NCBI GenBank assembly: GCA_947569245.1 | Contig: CANORV010000001.1 | Location: 1-61,381 of the forward strand | Direction of reading: 5' to 3' | Length of the DNA stretch: 61,381 bases | DNA from: an uncultured Mycoplasmatota bacterium | GTDB taxonomy: Bacteria > Bacillota_I > Bacilli_A > RF39 > UBA660 | Shown here: positions 8,662 through 33,160 of the stretch, piece after piece | How the letters are laid out: every line of letters starts with the position of its first letter | Numbering within the stretch: the stretch's first letter is position 1 | Notes under the pieces: generated by a model | What the model was told of the DNA's origin: nothing | The model's database searches: none | Seen by the model: only the letters and a program-made list of their open reading frames with translations | Position numbers and translations under genes: made by a program

Positions 8662-8678
8662 TCTAACTTCTCCTATTC

Positions 8679-9119: not shown

Positions 9120-9383
9120 CTTACCTCTTCCTTCAATTAAAAAATTTATTATCATATTATAAAATAATTATACAATATAACCTGTTTAAAAAAAAAGAAA
9201 AATATCGTGATTATACGACATTTTACACTAATGATTACACAATAATCTTATAATAAACTCATCTATAAATTAGTAAAATCAGTTAAATATTAATTTCTTT
9301 TAAAAGAAGTATAATCCTAATTATTCTAATTTCATTAACGCTCATAATTTCTGAAGTCTTATTTTTAAAACTTTAACATTTTT

Positions 9384-10586: not shown

Positions 10587-10677
10587 AATAACCACCACTA
10601 AAAATTATACATTAAATTTATTATTCATACTAGTTTAAATAAAACTTTTTTTGTACATATTAAAAACAGGTGATAAA

Positions 10678-13175: not shown

Positions 13176-14223
13176 ATATAGCATGTTTTCTTTTGATACC
13201 CTAACATTCTTTTTAATTGCATCTTTAAGTAGTAACATAGGATATCTTACTTTTATTAAAGATACTAAAATAGATACTATTTTTTTAATTTTAATTGGTT
13301 CTGTTTTAGGCTTAATTCCTATTTACATTTATAATAAAATAATTTCTTATAATGAGGATAGAAATATCATTGAAAATATTGAATATCTTTTTCCTAAAAT
13401 AAATTTATTTATAAAAATTATTTTAATTATAACAAGTTTTTTAATTATGTGTATCTCTTTAAAAGAAATATCTAGCTTTATAAATATTTACTTACTAAAA
13501 AATACTAATACCCTTTTCATTAGCTCTATCTTTCTTCTTTTAGTATTATATACATCTAGTAAAGGAATAAATACAATTGTAAAAGCAAGTACAATATGTT
13601 TCTATCTTTTTGTTTTTATAAATATTTTATCAATTGTAGGAACCATAAATTTAGTAGATTTAAATAATTTAAAACCTCTTTTTATAAGTAATAAAATATC
13701 TCTTTTAATTGATAGTGTTATTTATTCATTTTTATCTACCTCTCCTCTTTTTATGTTAAGTATTATTAAAAAGAAAGATTTAAATAAAAAAAATTATTTA
13801 AAAAGTAATCTTTATAAAACATATATTTTTACTTCAATTTTCATCGTTATAGAATTTATTTTTACACTTGGAATATTAGGTATCACTCTTTTAAATATAT
13901 ATAAATATCCTGCTATTAATATTTATAAAAAGATATCATTTTTAAATATTTTTGAACGAGTTGAATCATTTTTTGCTATAAAGTTTTTATTTTATTCTTT
14001 TTTCTTAATTTCTATATCTCTCATCTTTGTTTTACATTTATCAAAAAGTTTATTAAAAAACAAGAAAAAAGATAACCTACTACTTGCAAGTTATTTTCTC
14101 TTAATTATATTTATAAGTTTCTTTTGTAAGTTTGATTTTTCTATTTACTTAATATCTTCATATTTATTAGGTATCTTTATTCCTATTATTATTTATATTA
14201 AAATGATTATTTTAAGTAAATAA
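13165..14223 (+). CDS. spore germination permease, GerA-family B subunit
   Basis: About 10 predicted TM helices over 352 aa. Overlaps the C subunit gene by 11 nt. Third gene of the ger operon. Confidence 0.75.
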   Translation: MKNKYSMFSFDTLTFFLIASLSSNIGYLTFIKDTKIDTIFLILIGSVLGLIPIYIYNKIISYNEDRNIIENIEYLFPKINLFIKIILIITSFLIMCISLKEISSFINIYLLKNTNTLFISSIFLLLVLYTSSKGINTIVKASTICFYLFVFINILSIVGTINLVDLNNLKPLFISNKISLLIDSVIYSFLSTSPLFMLSIIKKKDLNKKNYLKSNLYKTYIFTSIFIVIEFIFTLGILGITLLNIYKYPAINIYKKISFLNIFERVESFFAIKFLFYSFFLISISLIFVLHLSKSLLKNKKKDNLLLASYFLLIIFISFFCKFDFSIYLISSYLLGIFIPIIIYIKMIILSK

Positions 14224-14838
14224 TTATTGTATACTACAAACATACGCTGACTCTTCTAGAGTCTTTTTTACTTCATTTATATCATCATTCAATTTAATAC
14301 TAGACATTATTTTTTCTATTCCATTTGGAGTTTGTAAATCAATATCTTTAAAACTATTTAAATCAAATATTTCATTTGTTGTAAACTGTGTTTCATTATC
14401 AACTGTACATACTTTAGTATATCCAGCTATTCCCATATAAGTAGTTGGTGTCTTTTCACATGATGCTTTTTTCATATCTCTTGTTTCTTGATTAGTTGAA
14501 CCTGCTACTACATAGTTTTCAATGTAAGAATTAATTACTGTATGCACCTTGTTATCAGAATATTGAATGCTTTTTTCTATATTATTAGTATAACCTGTTG
14601 TATCAGACTCTCTTTTACTACAAACAAGTACCCCTGTTTGTTTAATTTCACCAGTTGGACTGGGACTTGATGTTATAGTAGGACTAGGACTTGGTGTTGG
14701 ATTTACATTACCCTCTATATATTCATCTTTTGGAATTAATATTCGTAAAACTGGTGGTAAAACAGCTATTAAAGTTAAAATTACTATTCCTAAAATGCAA
14801 AGTATCCACTGACCTGTCGTTATTTTTAATTTATTCAT
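14224..14838 (-). CDS. membrane-anchored protein with Pro/Thr/Ser linker
   Basis: N-terminal TM 'WILCILGIVILTLIAVL' followed by 'PTPSPSPTITSSPSPTG'. The rest is unassigned. Confidence 0.55.
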   Translation of the reverse strand: MNKLKITTGQWILCILGIVILTLIAVLPPVLRILIPKDEYIEGNVNPTPSPSPTITSSPSPTGEIKQTGVLVCSKRESDTTGYTNNIEKSIQYSDNKVHTVINSYIENYVVAGSTNQETRDMKKASCEKTPTTYMGIAGYTKVCTVDNETQFTTNEIFDLNSFKDIDLQTPNGIEKIMSSIKLNDDINEVKKTLEESAYVCSIQ

Positions 14839-14944
14839 ATTATCCCTCTTCTTCTATTTTTATAAGATTATTTTATCATATAAATAAAAATGTGAAAAGT
14901 ATTTTAAAAGTTATAATTCAAAAAAGTACGTTATATACGTACCT

Positions 14945-15883
14945 TTATTTTCGTAAATATAGTTTGTTACCTTTTTTTAATTGAATTATGTATTTACCGT
15001 CATAATTACATGTAAAAATATGCTTAATTAATGATATATCTGGATTTTCTTCTTGATTATCTTCACCAGCATCATCACTTTTTTTAGGATAAACTTTAGT
15101 CCATGAATCATTACTTGCTATATAATAATTATCTATTTTATACCAAGTATAATTATCAGTATTGTTATCTTTTATAATTTCTTGATAATTGTAAATTCCT
15201 CTTTTTATATAGCCAACTACACGTGAATTAACACTAGGACCACTTCTAAAGCGTAAATCATCAACTATAACTTCTATTTGATTTTTATCTAAATCTCTAG
15301 CAACAGGATTTATTAAAACCTTAGCATCTTTTGGTAAATCAATCCATGTTATATAACCGCCCCATAATTCTTTAGTAAAATCACGATCAATAAAAAAGAC
15401 ATCTTCTGGTTTTTTTGTATCACCAGTTATAACCCATTTACCTAATGAATTTTTAATTAAAGAATCACTATACCCTCTACCAGCTGTCAAATGAATGTGA
15501 TTTGCACTTGCCCCATCAGTTCCTTCATAGCAAATAATATCACCACGTCTAAATTTGTCTCCGACTTTTTTTCCTTTCAAATCACTATCATTAAAATGAG
15601 TCAAAGTCATAAAAGCAATATCTTTAAATGTTGGAGTCACAACTTTTGATGTTGATACTAACCAAACAGTATTGGTATCCTTATTTCCAATTCCACGAAT
15701 TGCTGTGATTTTCATTTCATCACAAGGACAATATATAGCATCTCTTGAAGTATCTTTACCAGCTTCATCTATTGGATAATCTTTTGGACTTCCTGTTGTA
15801 TGTTCTCTGTGAGAAACAGATCCTATATAGTTTTGAGTTATTCTCATATTTTTTAAAGGATATGTCATATAATTATCATTCAT
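14945..15883 (-). CDS. endolysin-like peptidase (M23/LytM-like N-terminal domain plus C-terminal SH3b-like domain)
   Basis: 'HREHTTGSPKDYPID' (HxxxD-like) and 'ANHIHLTAG' (HxH) motifs. 'RFRSGPSVNSRVVGYIKRG' is SH3b-like. No signal peptide. Overlaps the holin-like ORF by 8 nt. Confidence 0.6.
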   Translation of the reverse strand: MNDNYMTYPLKNMRITQNYIGSVSHREHTTGSPKDYPIDEAGKDTSRDAIYCPCDEMKITAIRGIGNKDTNTVWLVSTSKVVTPTFKDIAFMTLTHFNDSDLKGKKVGDKFRRGDIICYEGTDGASANHIHLTAGRGYSDSLIKNSLGKWVITGDTKKPEDVFFIDRDFTKELWGGYITWIDLPKDAKVLINPVARDLDKNQIEVIVDDLRFRSGPSVNSRVVGYIKRGIYNYQEIIKDNNTDNYTWYKIDNYYIASNDSWTKVYPKKSDDAGEDNQEENPDISLIKHIFTCNYDGKYIIQLKKGNKLYLRK

Positions 15884-16238
15884 ATTTTATTTCCTCTAAT
15901 ACTTCAGTATTATCTTTTTTACTGTTTGAAGACGAATTATTATCAGTTGTTGATTTCTTTAAATCTCTAAAAGATGTAAGTTTTCCTTCTAAAGATTTAT
16001 AAATTGTATCAGCACCTAAATAACTAAATAAACCAACCCAAAAACTATATTTTATATCGATATCTGTAAAAGTAATAGTAAATATTACACCTAAAATCAT
16101 ATTTATAACAAAACTATATAAACAAACATGCTTACTACATTTTAAACAGGCCTTTGTTTTTTGGATTAAAGAAACAGATATAGTAGAACTAGTTGTAGCA
16201 ATTAACAGTAAATTTTCTAATAACCGCCATTTAATCAT
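15876..16238 (-). CDS. holin-like small membrane protein
   Basis: 120 aa with three hydrophobic segments and a charged C-terminal tail. Sits immediately upstream of the endolysin-like gene and overlaps it. Confidence 0.5.
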   Translation of the reverse strand: MIKWRLLENLLLIATTSSTISVSLIQKTKACLKCSKHVCLYSFVINMILGVIFTITFTDIDIKYSFWVGLFSYLGADTIYKSLEGKLTSFRDLKKSTTDNNSSSNSKKDNTEVLEEIKYE

Positions 16239-16294
16239 TTTCCATCACCCATCCATATTATATTCAAAAATATAAATATAGTATGGATAAGTAC

Positions 16295-16654
16295 CTAGAG
16301 TTTTAAATTATTTTCTATCATTAAAATAAATCTTTTAGGATCTTCTAGTATTTTTGAATATAAATGTGTATGTTTTCTAAGTTCTAATAAAAACTCTGCT
16401 TCAGATGAAACCATACTAAATGAATATTCTCTACCATCATCTGTTTTTATTTTATAATTTTTGCCAAGAAAATAATTTATATCTACTTCTAAGGCATAAG
16501 CTATTTCAGTTAGTTTTTCATATGTTGGTTTCTTCTTACCACTTTCATAACCACTGATGCTTGCTTTTGAAACACCTATTTTATCTGCCAAAGCTTGTTG
16601 TGTAAGACCACTTTTCTTTCGTAAAACACGTAACCTATTTCCTAAAACCAACAT
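16295..16654 (-). CDS. XRE-family helix-turn-helix transcriptional regulator
   Basis: 'LRVLRKKSGLTQQALADKIGVSKASISGYESGKKKP' is a canonical Cro/CI-type HTH. Confidence 0.85.
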   Translation of the reverse strand: MLVLGNRLRVLRKKSGLTQQALADKIGVSKASISGYESGKKKPTYEKLTEIAYALEVDINYFLGKNYKIKTDDGREYSFSMVSSEAEFLLELRKHTHLYSKILEDPKRFILMIENNLKL

Positions 16655-16756
16655 AAAATCACACTCCGATACCTTTTAGATATCTAGATTATAGATTAAA
16701 TGAATAATATATACTCAGAAGTTAACCAAAGATAAACTTTTTTAACTTATTTTATG

Positions 16757-16784
16757 TTGCATTTATTACAAAATATGATAAAAT
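16757..16784 (+). promoter_or_regulatory. candidate sigma-A promoter for tRNA-Thr
   Basis: TTGCAT, 16-nt spacer, TG-n-TAAAAT, ending about 15 nt before the tRNA 5' end. Confidence 0.4.
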
Positions 16785-16799
16785 TATATTGTGCTAAAG

Positions 16800-16873
16800 G
16801 CCGATTTAGTTTAGTGGTAAAACAGATGCATGGTAAGCATCAGAGGACTGTTCAATTCAGTCATTCGGCACCA
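16800..16873 (+). tRNA. tRNA-Thr (anticodon GGU), encoded CCA
   Basis: Hand-folded cloverleaf. Acceptor GCCGATT/ATTCGGC (one mismatch). D stem GTTT/AAAC. Anticodon stem GATGC/GCATC with loop ATGGTAA. T arm GACTG-TTCAATT-CAGTC. 3' ACCA. Confidence 0.85.
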
Positions 16874-16893
16874 GATTGATAGGAAACTCGAAC
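16868..16893 (+). repeat. direct repeat copy 1 (tRNA 3' end plus 20 nt), att-like
   Basis: GCACCAGATTGATAGGAAACTCGAAC. It matches 22389-22414 at 24 of 26 positions. Confidence 0.7.
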
Positions 16894-16912
16894 TTCGAGT
16901 AACAATAGAAAG

Positions 16913-16935
16913 CGACTTGTCAAAAAGTCGTTTTT
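16913..16935 (+). terminator. rho-independent terminator after tRNA-Thr
   Basis: CGACTT-GTCAAA-AAGTCG followed by TTTTT. Confidence 0.5.
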
Positions 16936-16949
16936 GTGATATTATGGAT

Positions 16950-17063
16950 ATGTCAAGGAAACTTGCATAAAATAAAAAAGGGAATACTTAACCTTTCCAT
17001 GTTGAGTGTTCGCCAAAGATTTGGTTAGCACTTAATCTACGAAAGTAAATTGAGTGCTTTTTT
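16950..17063 (+). ncRNA. putative small RNA convergent with the 27-aa toxin-like ORF (candidate type I antitoxin)
   Basis: Promoter-like TTGTCA, 17-nt spacer, TG-n-TATTAT (16917-16945). Terminator AGCACTTAAT..ATTGAGTGCT plus T-run (17027-17063). Transcript ends are inferred, not observed. Confidence 0.3.
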
Positions 17064-17077
17064 CTTATGATAGTTTA

Positions 17078-17161
17078 CTATATTACAAAAGTAAAAAGTA
17101 AGGCTATGAGTAAGAAGATAATTAGAATAAGAGAAAGAATCAAAAAATCTTTCTTATGCAT
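17078..17161 (-). CDS. 27-aa hydrophobic peptide, type I toxin-like (MHKKDFLILSLILIIFLLIALLFTFVI)
   Basis: AGGAGG sits 8 nt upstream of the ATG. Single predicted TM helix with a charged N-terminus. Strong promoter upstream. Absent from the ORF track because it is too short. Confidence 0.5.
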   Translation of the reverse strand: MHKKDFLILSLILIIFLLIALLFTFVI

Positions 17162-17224
17162 ATCATCAGCCTCCTTTCACATGAAAGTTGGCAAGCACTC
17201 AACGATTAAGTATTCCTAGTGTTA

Positions 17225-17253
17225 ATTATATCAAGATATTTATTTTATAACAA
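17225..17253 (-). promoter_or_regulatory. candidate sigma-A promoter for the toxin-like ORF
   Basis: Minus strand reads TTGTTA, 17-nt spacer, TG-n-TATAAT. The predicted start falls at the inverted-repeat arm AGGAATACTTAATCG. Confidence 0.5.
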
Positions 17254-17258
17254 TATTA

Positions 17259-17313
17259 TTTACTAAATTCTGACAATTTAGTAAAAACACACTTGCAAAT
17301 TGACATATTCAAT
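17259..17313 (+). repeat. 5' box copy A (conserved sequence upstream of a cargo gene) with hairpins
   Basis: TGACAATTTAGTAAAAACACACTTGCAAATTGACATATTCAAT is about 85% identical to 22491-22531. It is preceded by a perfect 11-bp inverted repeat, TTTACTAAATT/AATTTAGTAAA. Confidence 0.6.
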
Positions 17314-17331
17314 TAGAGAGAAGTGATAACT

Positions 17332-17889
17332 ATGGCTTGTGCAACAATACATTTAGCAATAGCTAAAAAATATTTAAATAAACACGAAGAATTAAATTAT
17401 GAAAAGGTAATTGCAGGGACACTTTATCCAGATGCAGCAGAAGATAATGATAAATCACATTATACTGATATTAATCGTGGTAATGATAATATAAGCCATG
17501 TACGTGGGAAAGTAAATTTATATGCATTTTTAAATGAGCATAAATATTTGGATGATTTTGAGCTGGGTTGGTTCTTACATTTAGTAACAGACTATCTATT
17601 CTTTGAAGAATGTTTTACAGAAGAATATTTATTAAATAATAGCTATAAAGATTTTTGTAAAGATTTGTATTTTGCTTATGATCATTTAAATCTTTATTTA
17701 TCTAAAAAGTATGATATTACAGAAAATGATTACAAAAACTATTCTAGTGAGTATTATCCAGGGAAAAAATATCAAGATTGCATTTTGCCTAAAGAGATGA
17801 TTGATGAGTTTATAGATAGAGTTTCTAATATTGATTTGGATAAATATATTGAGAAAATTGAAAAATATCAAAGTAATATAAAACCATAA
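17332..17889 (+). CDS. hypothetical protein, possibly zinc-dependent phospholipase C/P1-nuclease-fold hydrolase
   Basis: His/Asp pattern 'ATIHLAIA', 'LYPDAAED', 'SHY', 'FLHLVTDY' recalls the Zn-dependent PLC family. The assignment is weak. Start at ATG 17332. Confidence 0.35.
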   Translation: MACATIHLAIAKKYLNKHEELNYEKVIAGTLYPDAAEDNDKSHYTDINRGNDNISHVRGKVNLYAFLNEHKYLDDFELGWFLHLVTDYLFFEECFTEEYLLNNSYKDFCKDLYFAYDHLNLYLSKKYDITENDYKNYSSEYYPGKKYQDCILPKEMIDEFIDRVSNIDLDKYIEKIEKYQSNIKP

Positions 17890-17907
17890 AAGTTGTTGAA
17901 CGTCCTT
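17888..17907 (+). repeat. 3' box copy A
   Basis: AAAAGTTGTTGAACGTCCTT is identical to 23249-23268. It begins within the stop codon of the cargo gene. Confidence 0.6.
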
Positions 17908-17963
17908 CCTTAGGGCACCATTGAGCAATCTATTCTAACTTTTGTTAGATTTAAACATATAGT

Positions 17964-17990
17964 ATCAACTTCAAAAGAAGTTGATTTTTT
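17964..17990 (+). terminator. rho-independent terminator
   Basis: ATCAACTTC-AAAA-GAAGTTGAT followed by TTTTT. Confidence 0.6.
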
Positions 17991-18019
17991 GTATTTAAGA
18001 AAAGAAAGGATAGATTTAG

Positions 18020-18886
18020 ATGATTAAATTAAAAACAAAAGAATTACATTTTGATGAATCTAGTCCACACTTACATATTGTTGGAGTTCCTTTTAAAGAT
18101 GGAATGAAAAATGGTATGGAAAAACAAGTTGGAAAATCTGATGTATTTAATAAAATAAGTTTAGTAAATATTCAAGATAAAATGAGAGAATATTGCATTA
18201 ATTCATTCAATAGAATTTATCATTTAAACTATACTCTTAAAGCAAAAGAAGAAGGAAGAAATGTTGATATTAATGTAGCTAATATGAATGAATATAAAAA
18301 GTTTAAACGAGAACAAGAAAAATACAAAAAGCAACTTAAAGAATTAAATAATAAAACAGATGAATTACAAAACAAATTTAATGAGATTAATGATATTATT
18401 AATAATCTAAAACCCACTATTATGAATAAAAATAATTACTCTATTTCTAGTGAAGATATAGATAAAATCAAAAAATATATAGAACAAACTAATGATACTA
18501 CTTCTAATTTAAGAGATGCTAACGACATAAATATTGTTTTACAAAAATATGAAGATGATTTAAGAGAACACTCTAACGAAGTTAGAAATTTAAAGAAGAA
18601 AATCAAAACTCGTGATGATAGAATTGAAGAATTAGAATATGATTTAGATAATGCCAATGAAACTATTGATGAGTTAGAAGATAAGGTATCAGAATTACAA
18701 AAAATAGTTGATTACTTTAAAGAATTATGGAAGAAGTTTATTGAATTTTTACAAAACAAATTCTTCTCTAATGATAAATATGATGACTTCATCAATGATT
18801 TATATGATGAAGATATACTTGATGACAATGATATAGATATTATTCAAAATAATAAAAATAATGAAAAAGATGATTTTGAAAGATAG
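18020..18886 (+). pseudogene. 5'-truncated MobV/Pre-family relaxase (plasmid recombination/mobilisation enzyme)
   Basis: 'ELHFDESSPHLHIVGVPF' is the MobV HxDExxPHxH motif, which normally lies about 100 aa into the protein. Here it sits at residue 10. The N-terminal catalytic region is missing and a terminator lies just upstream. The C-terminus is coiled-coil-like. Confidence 0.7.
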
Positions 18887-18936
18887 TAAAAAATACCAAT
18901 TTATAGTATAATTTTATTTAGATGTTGGAGGAAGTT

Positions 18937-19683
18937 ATGAATAAAAAAGTAATATTAAATCAAGTTGATAAACTTATAAAAATGTATAATAATGGTGAAC
19001 TTGGTGGTGAAGTAATGCCAGAAGATGCAAATCCTCATTTTGAAAAATCTTCTTTAGAAAATTATTTATATTTTACCGCACCAATGGCATTAAATTATCA
19101 AAGAAATTCCTATACTCTTTGGGAAAGTGCATTGAAAACATACAATGACCCAGAAACTAGATTTGTATTTAATCCTAAAATTTGTTTGGAAAAAACTTTT
19201 GAAGAAGTACAATATGCTTTAACTAAATATAAAGTTGCTTTGCAAAAACAAAAGCAAACTGAAATTTGGTTATCACTATGTAACACTTTTGTAGAATTAT
19301 TTGATGGCGATATAAGAAAGTTATTTGATACATTAGATAATGATGTAGATAAAATTAGAGATTATATTCAAAAAGAAAATAAAAAAAAATTCCCATACTT
19401 ATCTGGAACTAAAATTTGTAATTATTGGATGTATGTAATTTATCAGTATACTGATCGAAAGTATAGAAATATAGAAAATTTAACCGTTGCTCCAGATACT
19501 CATGTATGCAAAGCAACACATAAACTAGGATTAATAAATGAAGATGAATTTAATTCTAGTAATGTTCAACAAATTGTTATAGATAAATGGCAAGAACTAT
19601 TTAAAAATACAAAATATAAACCGATTGACATTCATACCCCACTTTGGTTATGGAGCAGAAATGGTTTTAAGGAGGTAAAGTAA
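18937..19683 (+). CDS. HhH-GPD-superfamily (endonuclease III-like) DNA glycosylase-like protein
   Basis: 'FPYLSGTKICNYWMY' is HhH-like. 'VAPDTHVCKATHKLGLI' resembles EndoIII 'PVDTHVFRVSNRLGL'. Start at MNKKVIL (GGAGG RBS). Confidence 0.5.
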   Translation: MNKKVILNQVDKLIKMYNNGELGGEVMPEDANPHFEKSSLENYLYFTAPMALNYQRNSYTLWESALKTYNDPETRFVFNPKICLEKTFEEVQYALTKYKVALQKQKQTEIWLSLCNTFVELFDGDIRKLFDTLDNDVDKIRDYIQKENKKKFPYLSGTKICNYWMYVIYQYTDRKYRNIENLTVAPDTHVCKATHKLGLINEDEFNSSNVQQIVIDKWQELFKNTKYKPIDIHTPLWLWSRNGFKEVK

Positions 19684-20234
19684 TGAAAGTATTAATAGGA
19701 ACAAAGAATCCAGGAAAAATAGAAGGAGCAACAGAGGCATTTAAAAATTATTTTGATGATTTTGACATTGATGGTATTCCAGTTTCATCAGATGTTAGCA
19801 AAGAACCAGTAAATAATGAAATATATGAAGGTGCTAGAAATCGTGTTAATAATTTAATGAAATATGCTCTAGAAAATGGAATAGATGCTGAATATTTTTT
19901 AGGTGTAGAATCTGGAATAACTAATTTGTTAGGTAAATGGGTTATTATCAATATTGCTGTTATTAAAGATAAAAATGGTTATGAAAGTTGGGGGACAAGC
20001 CCAGCATTTCCTGTACCAGATAAGTATGTTGATGAAATAATTTCAACTGATTTAGGAAAAGTAATGGATAAAATATTTAAGCAAAATGATTTAAGAAGTG
20101 GCAAAGGTGGTATTAGTTTTATTACTAATGGAATAATTAATAGAATAGATTTAACTAGAGAAGCATTTATAATGGCACTTACCCAACATACAAATGAAAT
20201 TTGGAATGATAGAAAAGTATTAGAGAGAAAATGA
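19683..20234 (+). CDS. inosine/xanthosine triphosphatase (YjjX/DUF84 family non-canonical purine NTP phosphatase)
   Basis: 'MKVLIGTKNPGKIEGATEAF', 'EGARNRVNNL' and 'GVESGI' are collinear with E. coli YjjX as I recall it. Confidence 0.75.
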   Translation: MKVLIGTKNPGKIEGATEAFKNYFDDFDIDGIPVSSDVSKEPVNNEIYEGARNRVNNLMKYALENGIDAEYFLGVESGITNLLGKWVIINIAVIKDKNGYESWGTSPAFPVPDKYVDEIISTDLGKVMDKIFKQNDLRSGKGGISFITNGIINRIDLTREAFIMALTQHTNEIWNDRKVLERK

Positions 20235-20246
20235 GGAGGAAATAAA

Positions 20247-20936
20247 ATGAGTAGAAATATTATTATAACTGGTGGAGATGATGGCCTAGGTAAAGCAATA
20301 GCAAAGTTATTAAGTGAAAAAAATAATGTTATTACTATTTCTAAAACAGAAGAAAATGCTATGAAAATATCAAAAGAAATACCTAGAGCAGAATGTTATA
20401 CTTGTGATGTTACTAAACCTGAAGAGGTCAATAATACTATTAAAACGATTATTGGAAATCAAGGAGATATTGATATCTTAATTAATAATGCTGGTGTTTG
20501 GCTAGCGGGAGATTTAACTGAAAATACTTATGAGCAAATTAATAATTGTATAGATGTAAACACTAAAGGACCTATTTATATGACAAAAGCAATATTACCA
20601 AATATGTATGAATCAGGTCATGGATTGATTATTAATGTTTGCTCACAAGCAAGTTTTGATAGTGATGATTTTTCAACTGTTTATAATGCTTCTAAATGGG
20701 CTATGAGAGGATTTAACAGATCTATTCAAAAAGATGTTAGTAAAAAAGGAATTAAAGTTACTGGATTCTATCCTGGATTTATGCAAACTAATATTTTTAA
20801 AAAAGCAGGAAATGATTATGATACATCAACAGGCTTAGAGGTAGAAAAAGTTGCAAAAGCAATTGAATTTATTATTAATTGTGATGATGATGTTATAATA
20901 CCTGAATTTGGAATAAAAGATATAGAAAATTATTAG
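20247..20936 (+). CDS. short-chain dehydrogenase/reductase (SDR)
   Basis: 'ITGGDDGLGKAIA' (TGxxxGxG), 'NNAG', and 'YNASK' (YxxxK). Confidence 0.85.
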   Translation: MSRNIIITGGDDGLGKAIAKLLSEKNNVITISKTEENAMKISKEIPRAECYTCDVTKPEEVNNTIKTIIGNQGDIDILINNAGVWLAGDLTENTYEQINNCIDVNTKGPIYMTKAILPNMYESGHGLIINVCSQASFDSDDFSTVYNASKWAMRGFNRSIQKDVSKKGIKVTGFYPGFMQTNIFKKAGNDYDTSTGLEVEKVAKAIEFIINCDDDVIIPEFGIKDIENY

Positions 20937-20937
20937 T

Positions 20938-21816
20938 ATGAAAGGAATGGGTATAATGGAAGAAAGATTAGTAAGAATTAATTCTGTTGATGAAATAGAA
21001 CAACCAGGTATTTTATATACTCCAAGTGAAGATACAAAAAAAGTTGTTATACATGTTCATGGATTAAATGGAAATTTCTATGAAAATAGATTTATAGATG
21101 TATTAGCAAGTTCCTATACAAGTAAGGGTTATGCTTTCTTAACTTTTAATAATAGAGGTAGAGATTTTATTACAGAGTTACTTAAGGGAAACGATTATAC
21201 AATTATTGGTGGAAGTTTAGAAAGATTTAAAGATTGCATATTAGATATCGAAGGTATAGTTAATTGGGTAAAGGAAAAAGGATATAATGAAATAATACTT
21301 GAAGGACATAGTTATGGGTGCAATAAAGTATTGTATTATTACAATCAAAAAGAAGATGAGAGTATTAAGAAAATAGTATTACTTGCCCCTTGTGATATTC
21401 CATCAGAAGGAAAAAAGTTTTTAAGTGAAAAAAAATATAAAATTGCAAAGGAAGAATCAACTCGATTAGTAAATGAAAATAAAGAAAATGAATTAATTGA
21501 TTTTTCTGTTATGGCTAATGGAAAAATAGCAGCAGGAACATATTATAATGATTTTCTACCTGGTGGAGTTAATGATTTTATTAGATATACAGATGGTATA
21601 AATGGAAAAAGTGAAGTTCTTAATAGTTTAGATATTCCTGTATTAGTAATATTTGGAGATGTCGATGAATGTGTTTTAACTCAATCTATTGATATAGTAA
21701 AAGGATATTTAAGTAATAATATTAATGATTGTAATATTCAAGTTATTAAGGGTGCAGATCATTCATATAATGATAAATATAATGAGTTAGGAGAAATAGT
21801 TAAAAATAATATATGA
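20938..21816 (+). CDS. alpha/beta-fold hydrolase
   Basis: Nucleophile elbow 'GHSYGC'. Candidate acid and His residues at 'FGDVDE' and 'GADHS'. The start codon is uncertain (three ATGs within the first 7 codons). Confidence 0.7.
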   Translation: MKGMGIMEERLVRINSVDEIEQPGILYTPSEDTKKVVIHVHGLNGNFYENRFIDVLASSYTSKGYAFLTFNNRGRDFITELLKGNDYTIIGGSLERFKDCILDIEGIVNWVKEKGYNEIILEGHSYGCNKVLYYYNQKEDESIKKIVLLAPCDIPSEGKKFLSEKKYKIAKEESTRLVNENKENELIDFSVMANGKIAAGTYYNDFLPGGVNDFIRYTDGINGKSEVLNSLDIPVLVIFGDVDECVLTQSIDIVKGYLSNNINDCNIQVIKGADHSYNDKYNELGEIVKNNI

Positions 21817-22268
21817 AAGTATTATTTACAGCATTTAATGGAAAAAGTAATTCTTCAAAACTTTTGTTAGACAAAATTAATAGTGATAATAAATTGTATT
21901 TAAGAAATAGTTTCAGCACTAGTGTTAATCAACTAAAAAAAGAATTGAATAGTAAAAACTATGACTTAATTATTTCATTTGGTCAAGCCCCTTTAGACAA
22001 AGATACTATAAAAATTGAAACTATTGGTCAAGATAAAATAAAATATAAAACAAAATATGATTTTACATCATTAGAAGAAACATTTTGTATTAATAATTAT
22101 AAAACTATTATATCGAATAATGCAGGAGCATACTTATGTAATAATATTTATTTTAATGGACTTAAATATATTGATGATAACAAATTAAATACTAATATGA
22201 TTTTTATTCATATACCAGCAATAGATAATATTAGTAACATTGATAATTTGGCAAATATCTTCAATTAG
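21813..22268 (+). CDS. pyroglutamyl-peptidase I (C15)-like protein
   Basis: 'AGAYLCNNIYF' resembles the catalytic Cys region 'GTFVCN' of pyroglutamyl peptidase, and 'FIHIP' resembles its His region. ATGA overlap with the upstream gene. Confidence 0.5.
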   Translation: MKVLFTAFNGKSNSSKLLLDKINSDNKLYLRNSFSTSVNQLKKELNSKNYDLIISFGQAPLDKDTIKIETIGQDKIKYKTKYDFTSLEETFCINNYKTIISNNAGAYLCNNIYFNGLKYIDDNKLNTNMIFIHIPAIDNISNIDNLANIFN

Positions 22269-22388
22269 AAAAATGTTTAAAAAATATAGCATTATTAGTA
22301 AAAATAGTTTATAATTTAGATATGAAGTCAGTACTATATGTACTTGATTACTTAATTTTGCGAAAAGTTGTAGATAACTATCACTATC

Positions 22389-22414
22389 GCACCAGATTGA
22401 TACCAAACTCGAAC
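22389..22414 (+). repeat. direct repeat copy 2, att-like
   Basis: GCACCAGATTGATACCAAACTCGAAC. Confidence 0.7.
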
Positions 22415-22442
22415 CTCTCTATTTTAGAGAGGCTCGAGTTTT
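22408..22442 (+). terminator. rho-independent terminator downstream of the island-1 operon
   Basis: CTCGAACCTCTCT-ATTTT-AGAGAGGCTCGAG followed by TTTT. Confidence 0.55.
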
Positions 22443-22467
22443 AAAATATCCTAAGTTTTGATATAAT
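22439..22467 (+). promoter_or_regulatory. candidate extended -10 promoter upstream of 5' box B
   Basis: TTTTAA, 17-nt spacer, TG-n-TATAAT. Confidence 0.35.
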
Positions 22468-22490
22468 GTTTTTGTAAATAAATTGAATTT

Positions 22491-22531
22491 TGTCAATTTA
22501 GTAAACACACTTGTACATTGACATCATCAAT
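22491..22531 (+). repeat. 5' box copy B
   Basis: TGTCAATTTAGTAAACACACTTGTACATTGACATCATCAAT. The CATTGA-CATCA-TCAATG hairpin carries a compensatory base-pair change relative to copy A (AATTGA-CATAT-TCAATT). Confidence 0.6.
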
Positions 22532-22552
22532 GAATGTGTGTAGGAGGTACTT

Positions 22553-23260
22553 ATGAAGAAAGATTGTAAATTGACGTTTTTTGAAAATTTCAATGATTTA
22601 AATAATTGGAATTTTAACATTGGAAGTGGACTTAAAAATTTATGGGGGAATCATGAGAAAGAGTTTTATACTCAAAAAGATGATAATATTTATATAAAGG
22701 ATAATAAATTATATATTGTTGCTAAAAGAGAAAAATTTGAAGATTGTAATTATACCTCAGCAAGAATAACTACGAAAGATAAAAAATATTTTAAATATGG
22801 TTATATTGAAATAAAAGCTAAACTTCCTACGGGAAGGGGTTCATGGCCCGCTTTATGGAGGATGGGGCAAAACGGATTATGGCCTATAGGTGGAGAAATA
22901 AATATTATGGAACATATTGGAATTAATCAAAATATGATTTACCACACAATTCATTCTAAAAATCATATATGTAAATCTTATTTCTCACATAAAGAAATAA
23001 TAAATGGTGTTTCAGATGACTTTCATATATACGGAATGCTATGGGAAGAGAATGCTATTGAATTCTTTGTTGATAATGTTCCTTATGGAAAAATAACTAA
23101 TGATAAATATATAAATAAGGAGGATTAGCCATTTAATGATTATTTTTATTTTATTATTAATTTAGCAGTCGGAGGAGATTGGGCTGGAGAAATAGTTGAT
23201 GAAGATTTACCATTTATTTTTATAATTGATTATATTAAGGTTTATCAGAAAAGTTGTTGA
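22553..23260 (+). pseudogene. GH16 beta-glucanase/laminarinase-like gene interrupted by an in-frame TAG
   Basis: 'GGEINIMEH' corresponds to the GH16 ExDxxE motif with Asp replaced by Asn. The TAG at 23126-23128 is followed in the same frame by 'PFNDYFYFIINLAVGGDWAGE...IDYIKVYQ', a typical GH16 C-terminus. No signal peptide. Confidence 0.7.
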
Positions 23261-23268
23261 ACGTCCTT
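23249..23268 (+). repeat. 3' box copy B
   Basis: AAAAGTTGTTGAACGTCCTT. It contains the TGA that ends the extended GH16 frame. Confidence 0.6.
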
Positions 23269-23862
23269 TCCAATGTCATCAGTTTAAGAAACTATGCAAG
23301 AAATTGTATAGGTTTCATCATTTATCACACGCCAAAATTCATCAGTTATAATTGATGTTTAACTGCCTTAATATTAAAATTAAATACTACTTAATTTATT
23401 GTAACTATTCTTATTATAGGGACTAAAATGAACTTTATGTTTCCTACCTTTTCTTATTGGTATTTTATATTTAGACATTTTATTTATTAATTTATCATAC
23501 ACAACTTTAATCTTTTATTTTCGTCTTCTTCTAACATTATCTTTATTCATTACTTTTAAATAATCCTATTGCCATATCTTCATCTATAGTCATTTCATAC
23601 TTATATTTATTTTGTTCTAGTTTTTCTTCTGTTTCTTTCATCATAGACGAAACTATATTAAAAATGAGTACACTAGAGAAAAAATATTGTTCTATTATAA
23701 TCTTGAAACTACTAATAAATTTTTCTGTTTTTAACTTCCATTTTAAAAATTTTTATAAATCGCCCCACTTTGGAAACACTATCTTTAATCTAAGTAAATT
23801 TGACAAAAAAACAATACTTATGCACAATAATAAGTACATTTGAGAGGAGAATAAGAATATAT

Positions 23863-24486
23863 ATGATAATACATACAAAAGAAGAACTTCCTATATTACT
23901 TGACTACTGTAAAGCTACTCCATATTCTGATGCAAAACCTGGTGGAGATTTTTACAAAATTAAATCTCAAACATTTTGCTTTCCTGATGGAACAATACAA
24001 ACTAGAGAATATATAGATAAAAGAAAAGCCAGCGTTGTAATACCAATAACAGAAGATAAAAATGTTGTTTTTGTTATTCAACCAATTGCATTATCAGAGG
24101 AAGGATCTTTAATAGAGTTTCCAGCTGGATATTGGGAGTTAAACGAAGATGGCTTACAAGCTGGAAAAAGAGAACTGTCAGAAGAAACAGGCTATGTTCC
24201 AGAAAAAATACTATATCTTGGTAGCCATTATCAAGATCCTGGTAGTATTAAACAAAAGGTTGATGTATATTTAGCCCTAAATTGTAAAAAGTTACATAAG
24301 CAAAAACTTGATAAAGGTGAATTTATAAAATATGTTGAAATACCATATGATTTAGCTCTTGAATTAATGGATGAAGGATATTTAAAAGATGCTAATTCTT
24401 ACATTGCATTAAGTAAAAGTAATAGAGTTTTACAAAAACAATATAAAAAGCAACAATATAATATTAAAAATAAAAGTTGTAAATAA
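23863..24486 (+). CDS. NUDIX hydrolase (ADP-ribose pyrophosphatase-like)
   Basis: NUDIX box 'GYWELNEDGLQAGKRELSEETGY'. Start moved to MIIHTKEE (GAGAGGAG RBS). Confidence 0.85.
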   Translation: MIIHTKEELPILLDYCKATPYSDAKPGGDFYKIKSQTFCFPDGTIQTREYIDKRKASVVIPITEDKNVVFVIQPIALSEEGSLIEFPAGYWELNEDGLQAGKRELSEETGYVPEKILYLGSHYQDPGSIKQKVDVYLALNCKKLHKQKLDKGEFIKYVEIPYDLALELMDEGYLKDANSYIALSKSNRVLQKQYKKQQYNIKNKSCK

Positions 24487-24497
24487 CTACATTACTA

Positions 24498-24513
24498 ACA
24501 CCAGATTGACAGA
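24498..24513 (+). repeat. direct repeat copy 3 (short), att-like
   Basis: ACACCAGATTGACAGA shares the exact 11-mer CACCAGATTGA with copies 1 and 2. Confidence 0.4.
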
Positions 24514-24721
24514 ATAACGCAAATCTTACTCATAAACATCCAATCTAAAAGGACAAAGAAAAAACTTAACTATTAAATATTTCTAAAATAATTATAACAA
24601 ACATTGTTTCTTATGCAATAATTTTATGCTAACTTTTTTAAATTAACATATAATACAATTATTAAATCTTACCTATTTTCTAAAATAAATCTGTGTTAAA
24701 ATTATATATAGGTGATGTCCT

Positions 24722-25516
24722 TTGAACATATATAAAAATTTAAACAAAATAACTAAATATATCGATGAAAATCTTGAAAATGATATAAACTATGAAACAT
24801 TAGCAAATTTTTTAGGAGTAAATGTCTATACTATGCAAAGATTATTTACTATGATTACAGGTATTTCCCTATCGGAATATATTAGAAAAAGAAGATTATC
24901 TAGTGCCGGTTTTGATTTATATGAGAAGACTTCAAAAATAATTGATATTGCAATTAAATATCAATATGATAATCCAACATCATTTTCTAGGGCATTTGAA
25001 AAATTTCATGGAATTAAACCAAGTCTAGTAAACAAAGTAACGAAACTTAAAAATTTTCCGAGAATAATTTTCAATGAAGATGTTAAAATTACTACTGAAT
25101 TTGACTATGAAATAATCACTCTTGACGAAATGCATCTATATGGTATTGGTATCACAACAAATAATAAAAAAATCACAAATGACGCACCAATCTTTTTTAA
25201 AGAAATCGAAAACAAATATATAAACAAATATGGAGAAATCAAATATGGAATGATTACATATGATACAAAACATGAAGAATGTCAAAAATATTATTGTCTA
25301 TACGATAAAGTAATAGATGAATTTGAAAAGATAATAATTCCTAAAAGTAAATGGTTAAAATTTAGAATCAACTCCCAAAATGCTAAAGACATCCAAGAAA
25401 TATCACATAAATTTTACAAAGAATTTCTACCATCAATTAAATATAATCTAAAAGAAATGCCTGAACTAGAATACTATCATAATGATGTAACTGACTTTTT
25501 GATTGCTATTTATTAA
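24722..25516 (+). CDS. AraC-family transcriptional regulator with GyrI-like effector-binding domain
   Basis: The N-terminal double HTH ('LANFLGVNVYTMQRLF', 'IDIAIKYQYDNPTSFSRAFEKFHGIKP') is AraC-type. The C-terminal ~150 aa are Rob/GyrI-like. TTG start. Confidence 0.8.
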   Translation: MNIYKNLNKITKYIDENLENDINYETLANFLGVNVYTMQRLFTMITGISLSEYIRKRRLSSAGFDLYEKTSKIIDIAIKYQYDNPTSFSRAFEKFHGIKPSLVNKVTKLKNFPRIIFNEDVKITTEFDYEIITLDEMHLYGIGITTNNKKITNDAPIFFKEIENKYINKYGEIKYGMITYDTKHEECQKYYCLYDKVIDEFEKIIIPKSKWLKFRINSQNAKDIQEISHKFYKEFLPSIKYNLKEMPELEYYHNDVTDFLIAIY

Positions 25517-25552
25517 ACTGACAAAATTAGTTGATAAAATGTCAGTTTTTTA
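25517..25552 (+). terminator. rho-independent terminator after the AraC gene
   Basis: ACTGACA-(16 nt)-TGTCAGT followed by TTTTTT. Confidence 0.55.
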
Positions 25553-25593
25553 TTTTACATTTTTGCTATACTTGTAATCAGGGTGACAAATTT

Positions 25594-27450
25594 ATGGTGT
25601 TAACATCAGAAATTTATTTAACCAAAAAATTTGTTTCAAAGAATGAATGGTTAGAATTAATTAAAACAATATCAAATTATAATGGAATTTTAAAAAAATG
25701 GAAAATAATTATTACTAATGATAAAAATCAAATAAGATACTTTATTAAAACTAGATGTACCCTACCAGCTACTATCAATAATTTAAATTCTTTTTTATTA
25801 AAACCTTATAAAGAAATAACTAGCAAAAAATCAAACTATACATTACTCACATTACCAAAATTTGACAGTAATATAATTGATTTAATAAATTATAGTGAAA
25901 TTAAAAATAAAGGTACTCTTGAGTATTTAGAAATTAATTTTTTAAAATTATATGATGATAAAATTAAATCCAATATAACTTATTACTTGAATAAAAATGG
26001 AATAATCAAAAAATATAAAGTAATATTTGCTATTCCAACAAACATATTATCAATAGATTTTGAAGGAAATAAAAGATACTTTTATAAAAGTCCTCCAAAG
26101 TATTTAGAAATTAATAAAATATTAAATTTATTAAGTAGTGATAAAAATAATGCTTTAGTATCTATTGATACATTTCCATATTTACAAGGAAATTTCTATT
26201 TAAATCAAAATAATTTCAGTTTTGATAAACACTCTATCATATTTGGTTCTTCTGGCTCAGGTAAATCTAAATTAATAAGCCTATTAATAAAAAATATTAA
26301 TAAAAATGAAAATTTATATCAAAAATATAAAGTCGTAGTTATTGATCCTCATGCAGCACTTGAAAATGATATTGGTGGTCTAGGAAAAGTTATCGATTTT
26401 AAAAACAGTTTAGACAGCATAGACTTATTTATTAATAATAATAACGACATTGTAGCATCCACTGAACTTTTATTAGATTTATTAAAATCTCTAATTTTAG
26501 ACCAATATAATTCAAAGTTAGAAAGAGTTTTAAGACACTGCATACATTTATTACTGACTGATGAAGCATTTAATTTTAGAAACCTAAGAAAACTTATTTT
26601 AGATTTAGAATATAGGAATACTTTAATTAAAAAATTAAAATATAATTTACCAATTAACGTAATCGATTTCTTTCTATCTGATTTTAATGATTTAAAAACT
26701 AAATCTTATGGTGAAGCTATATCCCCTATTATAAGTTTTATAGACGAAATGGAAATGATTCCCGTATTTAATTCCGAAGAAAATTTAGAAAGTCTAAAAA
26801 ATACAATTGACGATAATTTCTTAACTTTATTCTCACTAGATAGAATAAAATTAGGAGATAAAGTTACTAAAACTATAGCAGGATTAATAATGCAACAATT
26901 ATTAACTATAGCACAAAGTAGAAAAATAAATAAACACATTATATTTATAATAGATGAAGTTGCTGTTGTCGAAAATCCTATTTTATCTAGATATTTATCA
27001 GAAGCAAGAAAATATAATTTATCTTTAATACTAATAGGACAATATTTTAATCAAATATCAACCGAATTAAAAAACTCTATCTTTGCTAATGTTATCAATT
27101 ACTTTATATTCAGAGTATCAAAATTAGATGCCAGTTTATTAGTTGATAATTTTAATATGAAAATACCTTTAGATGACTCTAGAGATAGAAAAATCAAACT
27201 ATTGACTGAATTAAACAACAGAGAGTGCATTATAAGAATAGATTCAAATAAAATATTATTACCAGCATTTAAAGCAACTACATTAGATTACACAAGTATT
27301 CCTAGAATTAAGAAAACAACCATAGATTATGATAATAGCAAAAATAGTAAAAATACATCAAGTAAATCAAAAACTGATTTTAGCTTAAATAATGATATAA
27401 GTTTAAAAGATATTTTAATATCAAATTCAACAAACAAGAAAGGTGTGTAA
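25594..27450 (+). CDS. HerA/DUF87-like P-loop ATPase (FtsK-HerA superfamily)
   Basis: Walker A 'GSSGSGKS' followed by 'VVVIDPHAALEN'. Walker B 'IIFIIDEVA'. 'EARKYNLSLILIGQ'. A ~220-aa N-terminal domain is unassigned. Start at MVLTSEI (GGGTGA RBS). Confidence 0.65.
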   Translation: MVLTSEIYLTKKFVSKNEWLELIKTISNYNGILKKWKIIITNDKNQIRYFIKTRCTLPATINNLNSFLLKPYKEITSKKSNYTLLTLPKFDSNIIDLINYSEIKNKGTLEYLEINFLKLYDDKIKSNITYYLNKNGIIKKYKVIFAIPTNILSIDFEGNKRYFYKSPPKYLEINKILNLLSSDKNNALVSIDTFPYLQGNFYLNQNNFSFDKHSIIFGSSGSGKSKLISLLIKNINKNENLYQKYKVVVIDPHAALENDIGGLGKVIDFKNSLDSIDLFINNNNDIVASTELLLDLLKSLILDQYNSKLERVLRHCIHLLLTDEAFNFRNLRKLILDLEYRNTLIKKLKYNLPINVIDFFLSDFNDLKTKSYGEAISPIISFIDEMEMIPVFNSEENLESLKNTIDDNFLTLFSLDRIKLGDKVTKTIAGLIMQQLLTIAQSRKINKHIIFIIDEVAVVENPILSRYLSEARKYNLSLILIGQYFNQISTELKNSIFANVINYFIFRVSKLDASLLVDNFNMKIPLDDSRDRKIKLLTELNNRECIIRIDSNKILLPAFKATTLDYTSIPRIKKTTIDYDNSKNSKNTSSKSKTDFSLNNDISLKDILISNSTNKKGV

Positions 27451-27453
27451 AAA

Positions 27454-28152: not shown

Positions 28153-28328
28153 AAAGACCGATACTTTATAAAAATCTATACTATAATTAACAAAATACAT
28201 TTGATAAAAACATTATTGTATGCTATTTCTAAATATATTAAAAAAACATTAATCATAAAAAATTAAAATTATACGAAAGACAATTAATACAACTAATAAA
28301 ACTACCCTTATAAAAAGGAAAACTAATT

Positions 28329-29207: not shown

Positions 29208-29272
29208 TTATAGCATATTTTTCTTGCCAAAACTCGAACAATAGTATAAACTGTTATTTGAGGTGTTTTATA

Positions 29273-30826: not shown

Positions 30827-30862
30827 AAACAACTATACTGTCAATAACCAGAAAGGAAAAAA

Positions 30863-31387: not shown

Positions 31388-31421
31388 AAAAAGAAAGAAC
31401 ACCGCTCTTTTTTATTCACTA

Positions 31422-32165: not shown

Positions 32166-32190
32166 AAAATTATACCTCCATCTAAATAAA

Positions 32191-33127: not shown

Positions 33128-33160
33128 TTATCTTCACCTCACATAAAAAGACAATAACTA

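Follow-up and report, generated by a model that had tools for sequence, protein, structure and literature searches.

The tRNA-Thr gene of an uncultured Mycoplasmatota bacterium (lineage RF39, UBA660; contig CANORV010000001.1 of assembly GCA_947569245.1) is followed by a tandem series of small gene units. We consider it probable that this region is an accretion array of small integrative and mobilizable elements (IMEs), which insert exactly at the CCA end of tRNA and transfer-messenger RNA (tmRNA) genes. This reading is built on the boundaries of the units, an empty site, intact relatives, the presence of the same element behind different tRNA genes, and a deletion joint.

The window analysed here is the whole of that contig (61,381 nt), which is contig C1 of a fragmented assembly (G000; 1.40 Mb in 94 contigs, 72% complete, 26% G+C) whose host is known only from metagenome-assembled genomes (MAGs). 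It was compared with a same-genus genome (G001), with a sample of 61 genomes of the host family, used for comparing right-end types and counting Mob_Pre relaxase genes, and with contigs of other samples (L-numbered, for example L098, a Logan assembly). Contigs of other samples covering this locus were found by exact-protein look-up with the XRE gene adjoining tRNA-Thr, and are 99-100% identical to the window; a scan of JGI metagenomes using the neighbouring M23 peptidase returned no relatives.

Joints between the units

The array is anchored by tRNA-Thr(GGT) at 16800-16873 on the forward strand, which encodes its own CCA (ARAGORN; Rfam tRNA model, 61.7 bits) and is the sole match in an Rfam scan of 16000-25500 at E <= 1. 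The original prediction for this region had pointed to a 26-mer, GCACCAGATTGATAGGAAACTCGAAC, formed by the last 6 nt of the tRNA and the sequence behind it (copy 1, 16868-16893, +), which recurs at 22389-22414 (copy 2, +) with 24 of 26 identical positions and as an 11-mer, CACCAGATTGA, at 24499-24509. These repeats were confirmed, and none of 100 dinucleotide-preserving shuffles gave two matches to the 26-mer. The 11-mer starts in the window at 16869, 22390 and 24499; elsewhere in the genome it is found once, directly after tRNA-Arg(TCT) on contig C40.

The three copies differ in what they join. The leftmost joint is CACCA at 16869-16873, the last five bases of tRNA-Thr; in copy 1 it is followed by the left end of the first unit, GATTGATAGGAAACTCGAAC, which carries an element-type GG, and then by a hairpin (CTCGAAC/TTCGAG). 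Copy 2 is the right joint of units 1 and 2, in which CACCA is followed by a trailer where the GG is replaced by CC; these are the two mismatches between the copies. Copy 3 (24498-24513, +) consists of CACCA and GATTGACAGAA, a left end or trailer that has degenerated and lacks the hairpin. To the left of CACCA, copies 2 and 3 have some 26 nt in common (AAAGTTGTA.ATAACTA...).

Scanning for AAGTTGT-N(16-22)-CACCA revealed a fourth joint, AAGTTGTTGAACGTCCTTCCTTAGGGCACCA, at 17890-17920, inside what had been taken for the first of two islands, and others on C15; a looser pattern added a degenerate joint at 23251-23281 and one on C52. Across the 61 family genomes these right-end boxes are of two types, RE1 (AAGTTGTAGATAACTA...CGCACCA) and RE2 (AAGTTGTTGTACTTC...AGGGCACCA). 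The units terminate in CACCA (in the degenerate case of unit 3a, CATCA), and this 5-mer is the sole sequence common to all joints, the other 20 nt of the repeat being a trailer/left-end motif. From left to right the order is tRNA-CCA, unit 1 (16874-17920), unit 2 (17921-22394), unit 3a (22395-23281), unit 3b (23282-24503) and further sequence. In place of the two islands proposed earlier, we therefore describe the region as an array of at least four units (four or five), as judged from these joints.

An empty site behind tRNA-Thr

Contig L098 matches the window over 7344-16896 at 99.8% identity (9.5 kb of flank) and then continues, at 100%, with 22389-22509. Its junction reads tRNA-Thr...GGCACCAGATTGATACCAAACTCGAACCTCTCT..., or at greater length ...GTCATTCGGCACCAGATTGATACCAAACTCGAACCTCTCT..., and the sequence that it carries directly 3' of tRNA-Thr is the trailer of copy 2. 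We read this contig as a precise empty site for 16894-22388. Since the occupied allele has the element-type GG at its left joint and the chromosome-type CC at its right joint, the exchange would have taken place within or to the left of CACCAGATTGATA.

The same join is seen in G001, where tRNA-Thr is followed by a homologue of 22434-22543. A 91% homologue of the right end (22284-22389) lies elsewhere in that genome, before a trailer of the tRNA-Leu(GAG) type, and the homology ends exactly at 22389. A homologue of the unit 3a trailer directly 3' of tRNA-Thr was found in G001, G005, G013 and G024. Two further contigs from other samples leave the window inside the array, L102 after 16907 and L097 after 18058. 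For the remaining part of the array, 22415-24497, no presence/absence polymorphism was seen in ten other-sample contigs, all of which are collinear with the window over 22095-35515. Insertion at the tRNA 3' end, as originally suggested, is thus borne out by the L098 site; the accompanying view of the 26-mer as a simple target duplication is not, because only CACCA is common to the joints.

Intact relatives carry a large serine recombinase

No tyrosine or serine recombinase domain was found in 16868-24513, as had been noticed before. In related sequences we were able to find the complete element. It measures ~5.6 kb and comprises, behind tRNA-CCA, a 91-aa open reading frame (ORF91), a 637-aa large serine recombinase (LSR), a MobV relaxase, cargo genes and AAGTTGTAGATAACTATCACTATCGCACCA. 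On contig C7 of genome G056 the order is tRNA-Leu(CAA), a left end that we denote LE-B, ORF91, the 637-aa recombinase, a Mob_Pre protein of 445 aa, cargo, and a right end with exactly the sequence of 22365-22394. The 637-aa protein has Resolvase (PF00239, 2.5e-33) and Recombinase (PF07508, 4.2e-18) domains, and the distance from its gene to the left end is 0.7 kb; PF13408 (Zn_ribbon_recom) is not among the domain matches reported for the protein. The intact relatives thus have what is expected of an LSR element, namely a protein of more than 450 aa with both domains, encoded beside one end. Their Mob_Pre proteins measure 445-450 aa, and in the family sample recombinase homologues with 55-70% identity adjoin a Mob_Pre gene in 12 genomes.

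The same element stands behind different tRNA genes in other gut bacteria. In L133 it lies behind tRNA-Leu(CAA) and in L134 behind tRNA-Phe(GAA), the last gene of a ten-tRNA cluster; over 5630 nt the two sequences show 99.88% identity, they are set in unrelated flanks, and CACCA alone is repeated at both ends. Only this 5-mer is common to both L134 ends and across the tRNA targets, in line with the very short attP/attB identity of LSR elements. Together with the L098 empty site, these copies mark an element that is discrete, has defined ends and occurs or is missing at a specific site. Where the contigs permit the start to be read, the ORF91-LSR backbone begins right after the CCA of tRNA-Cys, tRNA-Leu(TAG), tRNA-Phe, tRNA-Gly(TCC) (in three genomes) and tRNA-Gly(GCC). 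The ORF91 module also stands behind tRNA-Arg(CCT) in L142, and in G000 behind tmRNA, tRNA-Arg(CCG) and tRNA-Leu(TAG), while a truncated recombinase gene lies behind an RE2 box on C55.

ORF91 (…ELKKKIEFICDFCNTKPTIINGSIKNIEHTNLNYIEPHRVIIKG…) has no Pfam match and is always located between the left end and the serine recombinase gene; it is a candidate accessory or directionality factor. Copies were located in L117:3678-3950(-) (G056) and L097:312-584(-), and in G000 at C55:8616-8344(-), C90:738-469(-), C68:830-1102 and C52:1709-1437(-). The identical protein is indexed in 286 blocks of a public assembly collection; we viewed ten of these places, including L133 and L134.

Intact elements can also be found in tandem. 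In L135 (ENA ERZ28616059), positions 3282-14503 contain two of them behind one tRNA-Leu(CAA), ORF100-LSR600-Mob414 followed by ORF91-LSR637-Mob450, and the joint between the two is RE2-like / LE-B, as at 17890-17940 of the window. The exact RE1 30-mer is present in 22 species-representative genomes, MAGs labelled as uncultured Bacilli, Tenericutes or Mollicutes that come from the gut of rabbits, mice and humans, and every kind of left end or trailer comes after it. Between G000 and G056 the modules are 92-97% identical and the flanking core DNA 67-73% identical. This difference indicates that the modules are mobile between genera.

Unit 2 is a deletion derivative of this element

Unit 2 (17921-22394, +) begins with an LE-B left end, TTGAGCAATCTATTCTAAC, with its hairpin, followed by a terminator at 17964-17990, and ends with an RE1 box at 22365-22394. 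Its first gene had been described as a 5'-truncated MobV relaxase. The loss of the relaxase N-terminus holds, and the gene proves to be a fusion, an ORF at 18020-18886 in which 13 codons of ORF91 are joined to MobV from the HxDExxPHxH motif onward. It retains the C-terminal 275 aa of the MobV protein, and its Mob_Pre match spans only profile positions 125-170.

The origin of the fusion can be read from the alignment with L133. Window positions 17914-18058 (the left end and the first 13 ORF91 codons) align with L133 8895-9039, and positions 18047-18884 (MobV from HxDExxPHxH onward) with L133 12351-13191. Because the two matches overlap in a 12-nt microhomology, CATTTTGATGAA, at 18047-18058, they trace to a single 3.3-kb deletion, which removed the rest of ORF91, the recombinase gene and the first ~167 relaxase codons, and created the fusion ORF. 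At the same site in another sample, L097 continues past 18058 with ORF91 intact over its 91 codons, followed by the beginning of the recombinase gene, MNEEKKIAGIYIRV. The cargo of unit 2 (18922-22268) consists of five genes, for an unknown protein, an NTPase, an SDR protein, an alpha/beta hydrolase and a C15-peptidase-like protein.

An integrase gene of their own is found in the intact relatives (G056, L133, L134) and not in 16868-24513. Units 1, 2, 3a and 3b lack a recombinase and have kept left-end and right-end boxes, in the manner of cis-mobilizable elements (CIMEs), which have lost integration and transfer genes and retain attL and attR; the units are now cis-mobilizable remnants at best. 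The original prediction left open whether the segments were decayed or mobilised in trans. Tandem accretion is supported by the stacked units and their joints, and decay by the intact relatives with their large serine recombinase and full MobV relaxase; the units lack an integrase because they are decayed.

The trailer motif is dispersed over tRNA genes

The trailer/left-end motif was found after at least 8 other tRNA or tmRNA genes of the host genome. The same 100-200 nt that follow tRNA-Thr follow the CCA of tRNA-Cys, tRNA-Lys(CTT) and tRNA-Arg(TCT), and in G056 the left end of unit 1 follows tRNA-Arg(CCT) at 95% identity. In the host genome, 14 tRNA or tmRNA genes stand last in a transcription unit, and 9 of them have a trailer of a single pattern, with a TCGAAC-type hairpin 13-20 nt past the CCA. 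The 26-mer is thus indeed a dispersed repeat, which is part of what had been named as speaking against insertion; its copies nevertheless sit at insertion boundaries.

Units 1, 3a and 3b

Unit 1 (16874-17920, +) is a recombinase-less remnant that runs from the left-end hairpin to an RE2-type right end at 17890-17920. It contains a terminator/promoter at 16917-16945, a 5' leader box at 17271-17306, and an ORF of 185 aa (17332-17889) without a Pfam match. An RE2-like right end closes the LSR600/Mob414 element in L135, and in G057 the order tmRNA, toxin-antitoxin-type unit, RE2, intact ORF91-LSR-Mob element reproduces the layout of the window. From these arrangements we read unit 1 as a remnant of the LSR600/Mob414 kind of element. 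A recombinase-bearing copy with exactly the left end of unit 1 was not found.

Positions 16917-17253 of unit 1 resemble a type I toxin-antitoxin module. A 27-codon hydrophobic ORF, MHKKDFLILSLILIIFLLIALLFTFVI, preceded by AGGAGG, lies at 17161-17078 on the reverse strand and converges with a conserved promoter (TTGTCA-17-TGnTATTAT, 16917-16945) and its transcript. The module has no match in Rfam, and neither it nor the junction has one in the plasmid database. It is also present in G000 at C14:~10250-9950(-), C40:~7090-6800(-), C11:~5185-4900(-) and C8:~32520-32420(-), and copies of it stand directly behind several tRNA genes.

Unit 3a (22395-23281, +) extends from a tRNA-type trailer to the degenerate RE2-type right end at 23251-23281. 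A rho-independent terminator (22405-22442) is followed by a TGnTATAAT promoter (TATAAT at 22462-22467) and, downstream of it, by a 5' leader box at 22491-22524. The cargo is a GH16 pseudogene at 22553-23260, beginning at 22553, with an interrupting TAG at 23126-23128, and the frame runs on to the RE2-like box. Unit 3b (23282-24503, +) is a remnant whose gene at 23863-24486 encodes a NUDIX hydrolase and whose right end, of type RE1, lies at 24474-24503 (AAGTTGTAAATAACTACATTACTAACACCA); in the intact element of G056 the last gene before RE1 is likewise NUDIX-like.

The 5' box, TGTCAATTTAGTAAACACACTTGTACATTGACAT, has inverted arms (TGTCAAT/ATTGACA) and occurs at unrelated cargo genes, just upstream of their ribosome-binding site. 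In addition to the two copies in the window (17271-17306 and 22491-22524), it is found in G000 at C15:21885-21859(-) and 23961-23935(-), and many times on C7 of G056. It looks like a shared 5' leader or operator. A function as origin of transfer (oriT) was considered and rejected, as the intact Mob genes that we examined on C16 and C10 have no such box upstream; a common 5' leader behind a TGnTATAAT promoter is the better reading.

Position 24503 is followed by a degenerate left end, GATTGACAGAA..., and then by genes for an AraC/GyrI-like regulator, a DUF87 ATPase, a Cys-rich protein and two more ORFs. The Logan contig L113 begins exactly at 24504. DNA similarity to G001 is absent past 24503 and resumes only at ~31000, so that the array may extend further and 24504-~31000 may be an older part of it.

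Discussion

A model for accretion at the CCA end

We propose the following course of events, in which we infer from comparing sequences that a serine recombinase is the catalyst, where the crossover lies, in what order the events took place and what part, if any, ORF91 plays. In the autonomous element the left end is a trailer-like sequence of ~20 nt that has a TCGAAC/TCTAAC hairpin as well as a terminator; its right end measures 30 nt and has the form AAGTTGT-N18-CACCA. The serine recombinase would join attP (right end-CACCA-left end) with a chromosomal target composed of the tRNA 3' end and whatever trailer comes after it, and the crossover would lie inside or beside CACCA. With a crossover there, at the end of the tRNA, a newcomer would land between the tRNA and the previous element. 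The variety of left ends and trailers that follow the RE1 30-mer likewise implies that insertion always occurs between the tRNA and the prior occupant.

For the present locus, the starting state would be tRNA-Thr followed by unit 3a, as is still the case in L098. The ORF91-LSR-MobV element (unit 2) would then have integrated, and a second element, of the type with an RE2 right end (unit 1), would have integrated in front of it. The 3.3-kb microhomology deletion would then have cost unit 2 the relaxase N-terminus, the recombinase and the greater part of ORF91. Units 3a and 3b would be older remnants of the same two kinds. Very short direct repeats have been reported for serine-recombinase IMEs (PMC5704250), and the joints described here fit this.

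Several points weigh against this model. The window has no recombinase, and the action of the enzyme on these sites is something we only infer; neither unit 1 nor unit 3a was ever encountered with its own recombinase. Junction modules are present in G002, G005, G012, G020 and G024, in which this recombinase family was not found, so that the arrays there are either relics or were made in another way. Serine integrases normally recombine only attP with attB (PMC3783163), and reinsertion beside an occupied tRNA gene would need the resident left end to act as the B' half-site; the variety of sequences following RE1 is consistent with this. When the half-sites were compared with the known 5-bp offset between attP and attB, no consistent centre emerged, the left side being suggestive and the right side inconsistent. 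Instead of representing the ancestral state, the L098 allele could have arisen by a secondary deletion across the 14-nt identity. Finally, the circular joint RE1-CACCA-LE-B was not found in JGI metagenome contigs or GTDB representatives, a result that is uninformative rather than negative.

How the target might be recognised is a separate question. Near-palindromes resembling GTTCGAA flank the CCA on both sides, in the tRNA T-loop (-24 to -18) and in the TCGAAC hairpin arm (+12 to +20). In the right ends, AAGTTGT is placed 4-5 nt farther outward than the motif of the T-loop, and no single centre fits both sides. The att sites of serine integrases span 40-50 bp, have imperfect dyad symmetry, and have a ZD motif that is shifted by 5 bp between attP and attB (PMC3783163); the 4-5 nt difference recalls this offset, which is a lead. 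We put forward, tentatively and with more doubt than confidence, that the recombinases read the T-loop GTTCGAA, ~20 nt from the end, and the CCA, both universal in tRNAs, as the left half-site and the TCGAAC hairpin of the trailer or of a resident left end as the right half-site, with exchange inside CCA/CACCA. If this is true, all tRNA and tmRNA genes would serve as landing pads, occupied sites would stay receptive to other sub-families, and the elements would build integron-like stacks of self-promoted cassettes in gut Bacilli with small genomes.

Alternative explanations

It could be asked whether the units are integron-like cassettes or products of homologous recombination. The ~170-bp junction module (right-end box, CACCA, terminator hairpin, promoter and 5' leader box) would then be a portable stretch of homology or a recombinase site, cargo genes would be exchanged from module to module, and the LSR IMEs would be one passenger among others. 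Unrelated cargo does stand between the same 5' and 3' boxes in G000, G005, G013 and G056, junction modules do occur in genomes without this LSR family, gene-level mosaicism within units crosses the limits of the boxes, and among the array ORFs the LSR is the only recurring recombinase. We nevertheless regard this explanation as unlikely for the array as a whole, because homology cannot account for the exact placement after the CCA of tRNA genes that have only CACCA in common. An IntI-like gene is absent, no integrase stands beside the anchor, and the junction is neither attC-like nor dif-like, the boxes not fitting the attC cores RYYYAAC/GTTRRRY. For the units with a 5' box and RE2 in particular, such a process may still apply.

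We also considered an Xer/dif mechanism (integrative mobile elements exploiting Xer, IMEX), and rejected it, as the candidate dif sites of the genome are unlike the junction. In this connection we note two identical dif-like 28-mers, GCTTTCTTATATTGATGTTATGTTAAAT, on different contigs of G000 (C5:33692(-) and C15:5740(-)), and a third such site, ACTTCGTATAATTGATGTTATGTTAACT, at C2:25932(-), 2.5 kb from an Xer-type recombinase gene; the host genome may have more than one Xer site. Three tandem tyrosine recombinase genes fill C91:756-3008, on a 3-kb contig. At C5:~35700-34080(-), the gene of a 473-aa serine recombinase is located immediately downstream of a putative D-Ala-D-Ala carboxypeptidase gene (judged from its translation). 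This arrangement resembles an element inserted in a protein gene and is unrelated to the tRNA arrays.

The presence of tyrosine recombinases elsewhere in the host genome raises the further possibility of islands made by a tyrosine integrase, in which the 26-bp identity block was copied from the tRNA-Thr 3' end and the integrases were lost or act in trans. The 24/26 direct repeat does bracket a block that is missing from L098, and tRNA 3' ends are the typical sites of tyrosine-recombinase IMEs (PMC5704250). What makes this explanation improbable is that the repeat overlaps the tRNA by just 5-6 nt, that the same left ends stand behind many unrelated tRNA genes and tmRNA with a homology break at CACCA, and that the intact relatives bear a serine recombinase beside the left end. 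No PF00589 gene was found in the array or the intact relatives, and several junction-bearing genomes have just two tyrosine recombinases, both Xer-sized.

Still less credit can be given to insertion by the MobV (Pre) relaxase, an HUH enzyme, acting on pseudo-oriT nick sites formed by a hairpin, ~10 nt and CACCA at the unit ends, and by the T-arm and CCA of the tRNA. The 1.4-Mb assembly has eight Mob_Pre genes, the right ends can be folded as a small hairpin followed by ~10 nt to CACCA, and unit ends and target share one 5-mer. Mob_Pre is, however, found in 7 of 14 junction-bearing genomes as against 20 of 47 other family genomes, showing no association, and all the intact elements are equipped at the left end with a serine recombinase dedicated to them. 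A Y1 transposase is absent, which speaks against this explanation and led us to reject an IS200/IS605-like mechanism as well. Reading the right-end boxes as tRNA fragments was likewise abandoned, since inspection and folds gave no consistent pairing for a T-arm/acceptor layout.

That the repeats are simply conserved tRNA trailers or terminators, as the pattern shared by 9 of 14 trailers might suggest, is hardly credible in view of the presence/absence polymorphism at 99.8% flank identity, the 92-99.9% identical modules behind different tRNA genes across genera, and the position of copies 2 and 3 after element right ends rather than tRNA genes.

Relation to known systems

The closest known systems are the accretion of IMEs and CIMEs at tRNA genes and the serine-recombinase/MobV IMEs such as Tn4451; by definition the present locus corresponds to CIME-like remnants and its intact relatives to IMEs. 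CIMEs and the tandem accretion of integrative and conjugative elements or IMEs at tRNA genes have been described (Pavlovic et al. 2004; Bellanger et al. 2011; reviewed in PMC5704250). As in those cases, the present array has integrase-less units with attL/attR-like ends, in tandem beside a tRNA gene, which would reflect successive insertions followed by decay, and it contains a relaxase remnant and a toxin-antitoxin-like module. The described cases involve tyrosine recombinases and a sizeable copy of the terminal part of the target gene, whereas here the intact relatives possess a serine recombinase of the large type, strict sharing is limited to CACCA, and the targets include many tRNA genes as well as tmRNA. 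Serine-recombinase IMEs of Firmicutes include Tn4451 (TnpX-TndX, with the MobV-type TnpZ) and streptococcal IMEs in rumA and similar genes, and those known insert within dispensable protein genes or with low specificity (PMC5704250). The family described here differs from them in entering at the exact 3' boundary of tRNA and tmRNA genes without disrupting them, and in its conserved ORF91.

Integron arrays are similar in consisting of ordered small cargo units with a conserved junction between them and entry at the anchor-proximal end. They differ in that IntI and attC-like sites are absent here, that the junctions bring their own terminator and promoter, and that the autonomous units encode their own recombinase and relaxase.

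The composite islands of the staphylococcal cassette chromosome (SCC) at orfX/rlmH combine ccr serine recombinases with ccr-less pseudo-SCC units. They too have tandem units and short repeats at one anchor, some units with a serine recombinase and many without; here the anchor is the CCA end of a tRNA rather than the 3' end of a protein gene, and the units, which are far smaller, include a relaxase. Tycheposons and other tRNA-anchored arrays have partial tRNA copies of tens of bases at their joints. The resemblance to tycheposons lies in repeated integration at tRNA genes, giving variable islands with cargo-only remnants; the right ends in the window, in contrast, are not recognisable as tRNA fragments. 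Three features of the present family appear to be new: that a large serine recombinase goes together with insertion exactly at the CCA boundary of many tRNA and tmRNA genes, that ORF91 is conserved, and that regular junction modules give the units a terminator, a promoter and a leader.

Significance

An integrase-less island can now be traced to the element from which it derives, the enzyme that it lost and the deletion that removed it. Behind it stands a widespread family of ~5.6-kb serine-recombinase/MobV elements that dock at the CCA end of many tRNA genes. Since several tRNA genes are apparently natural sites, these recombinases are possibly of practical interest as integrases. If the proposed target logic holds, they would explain how accessory genes are gained and exchanged at the tRNA loci of gut bacteria with reduced genomes.

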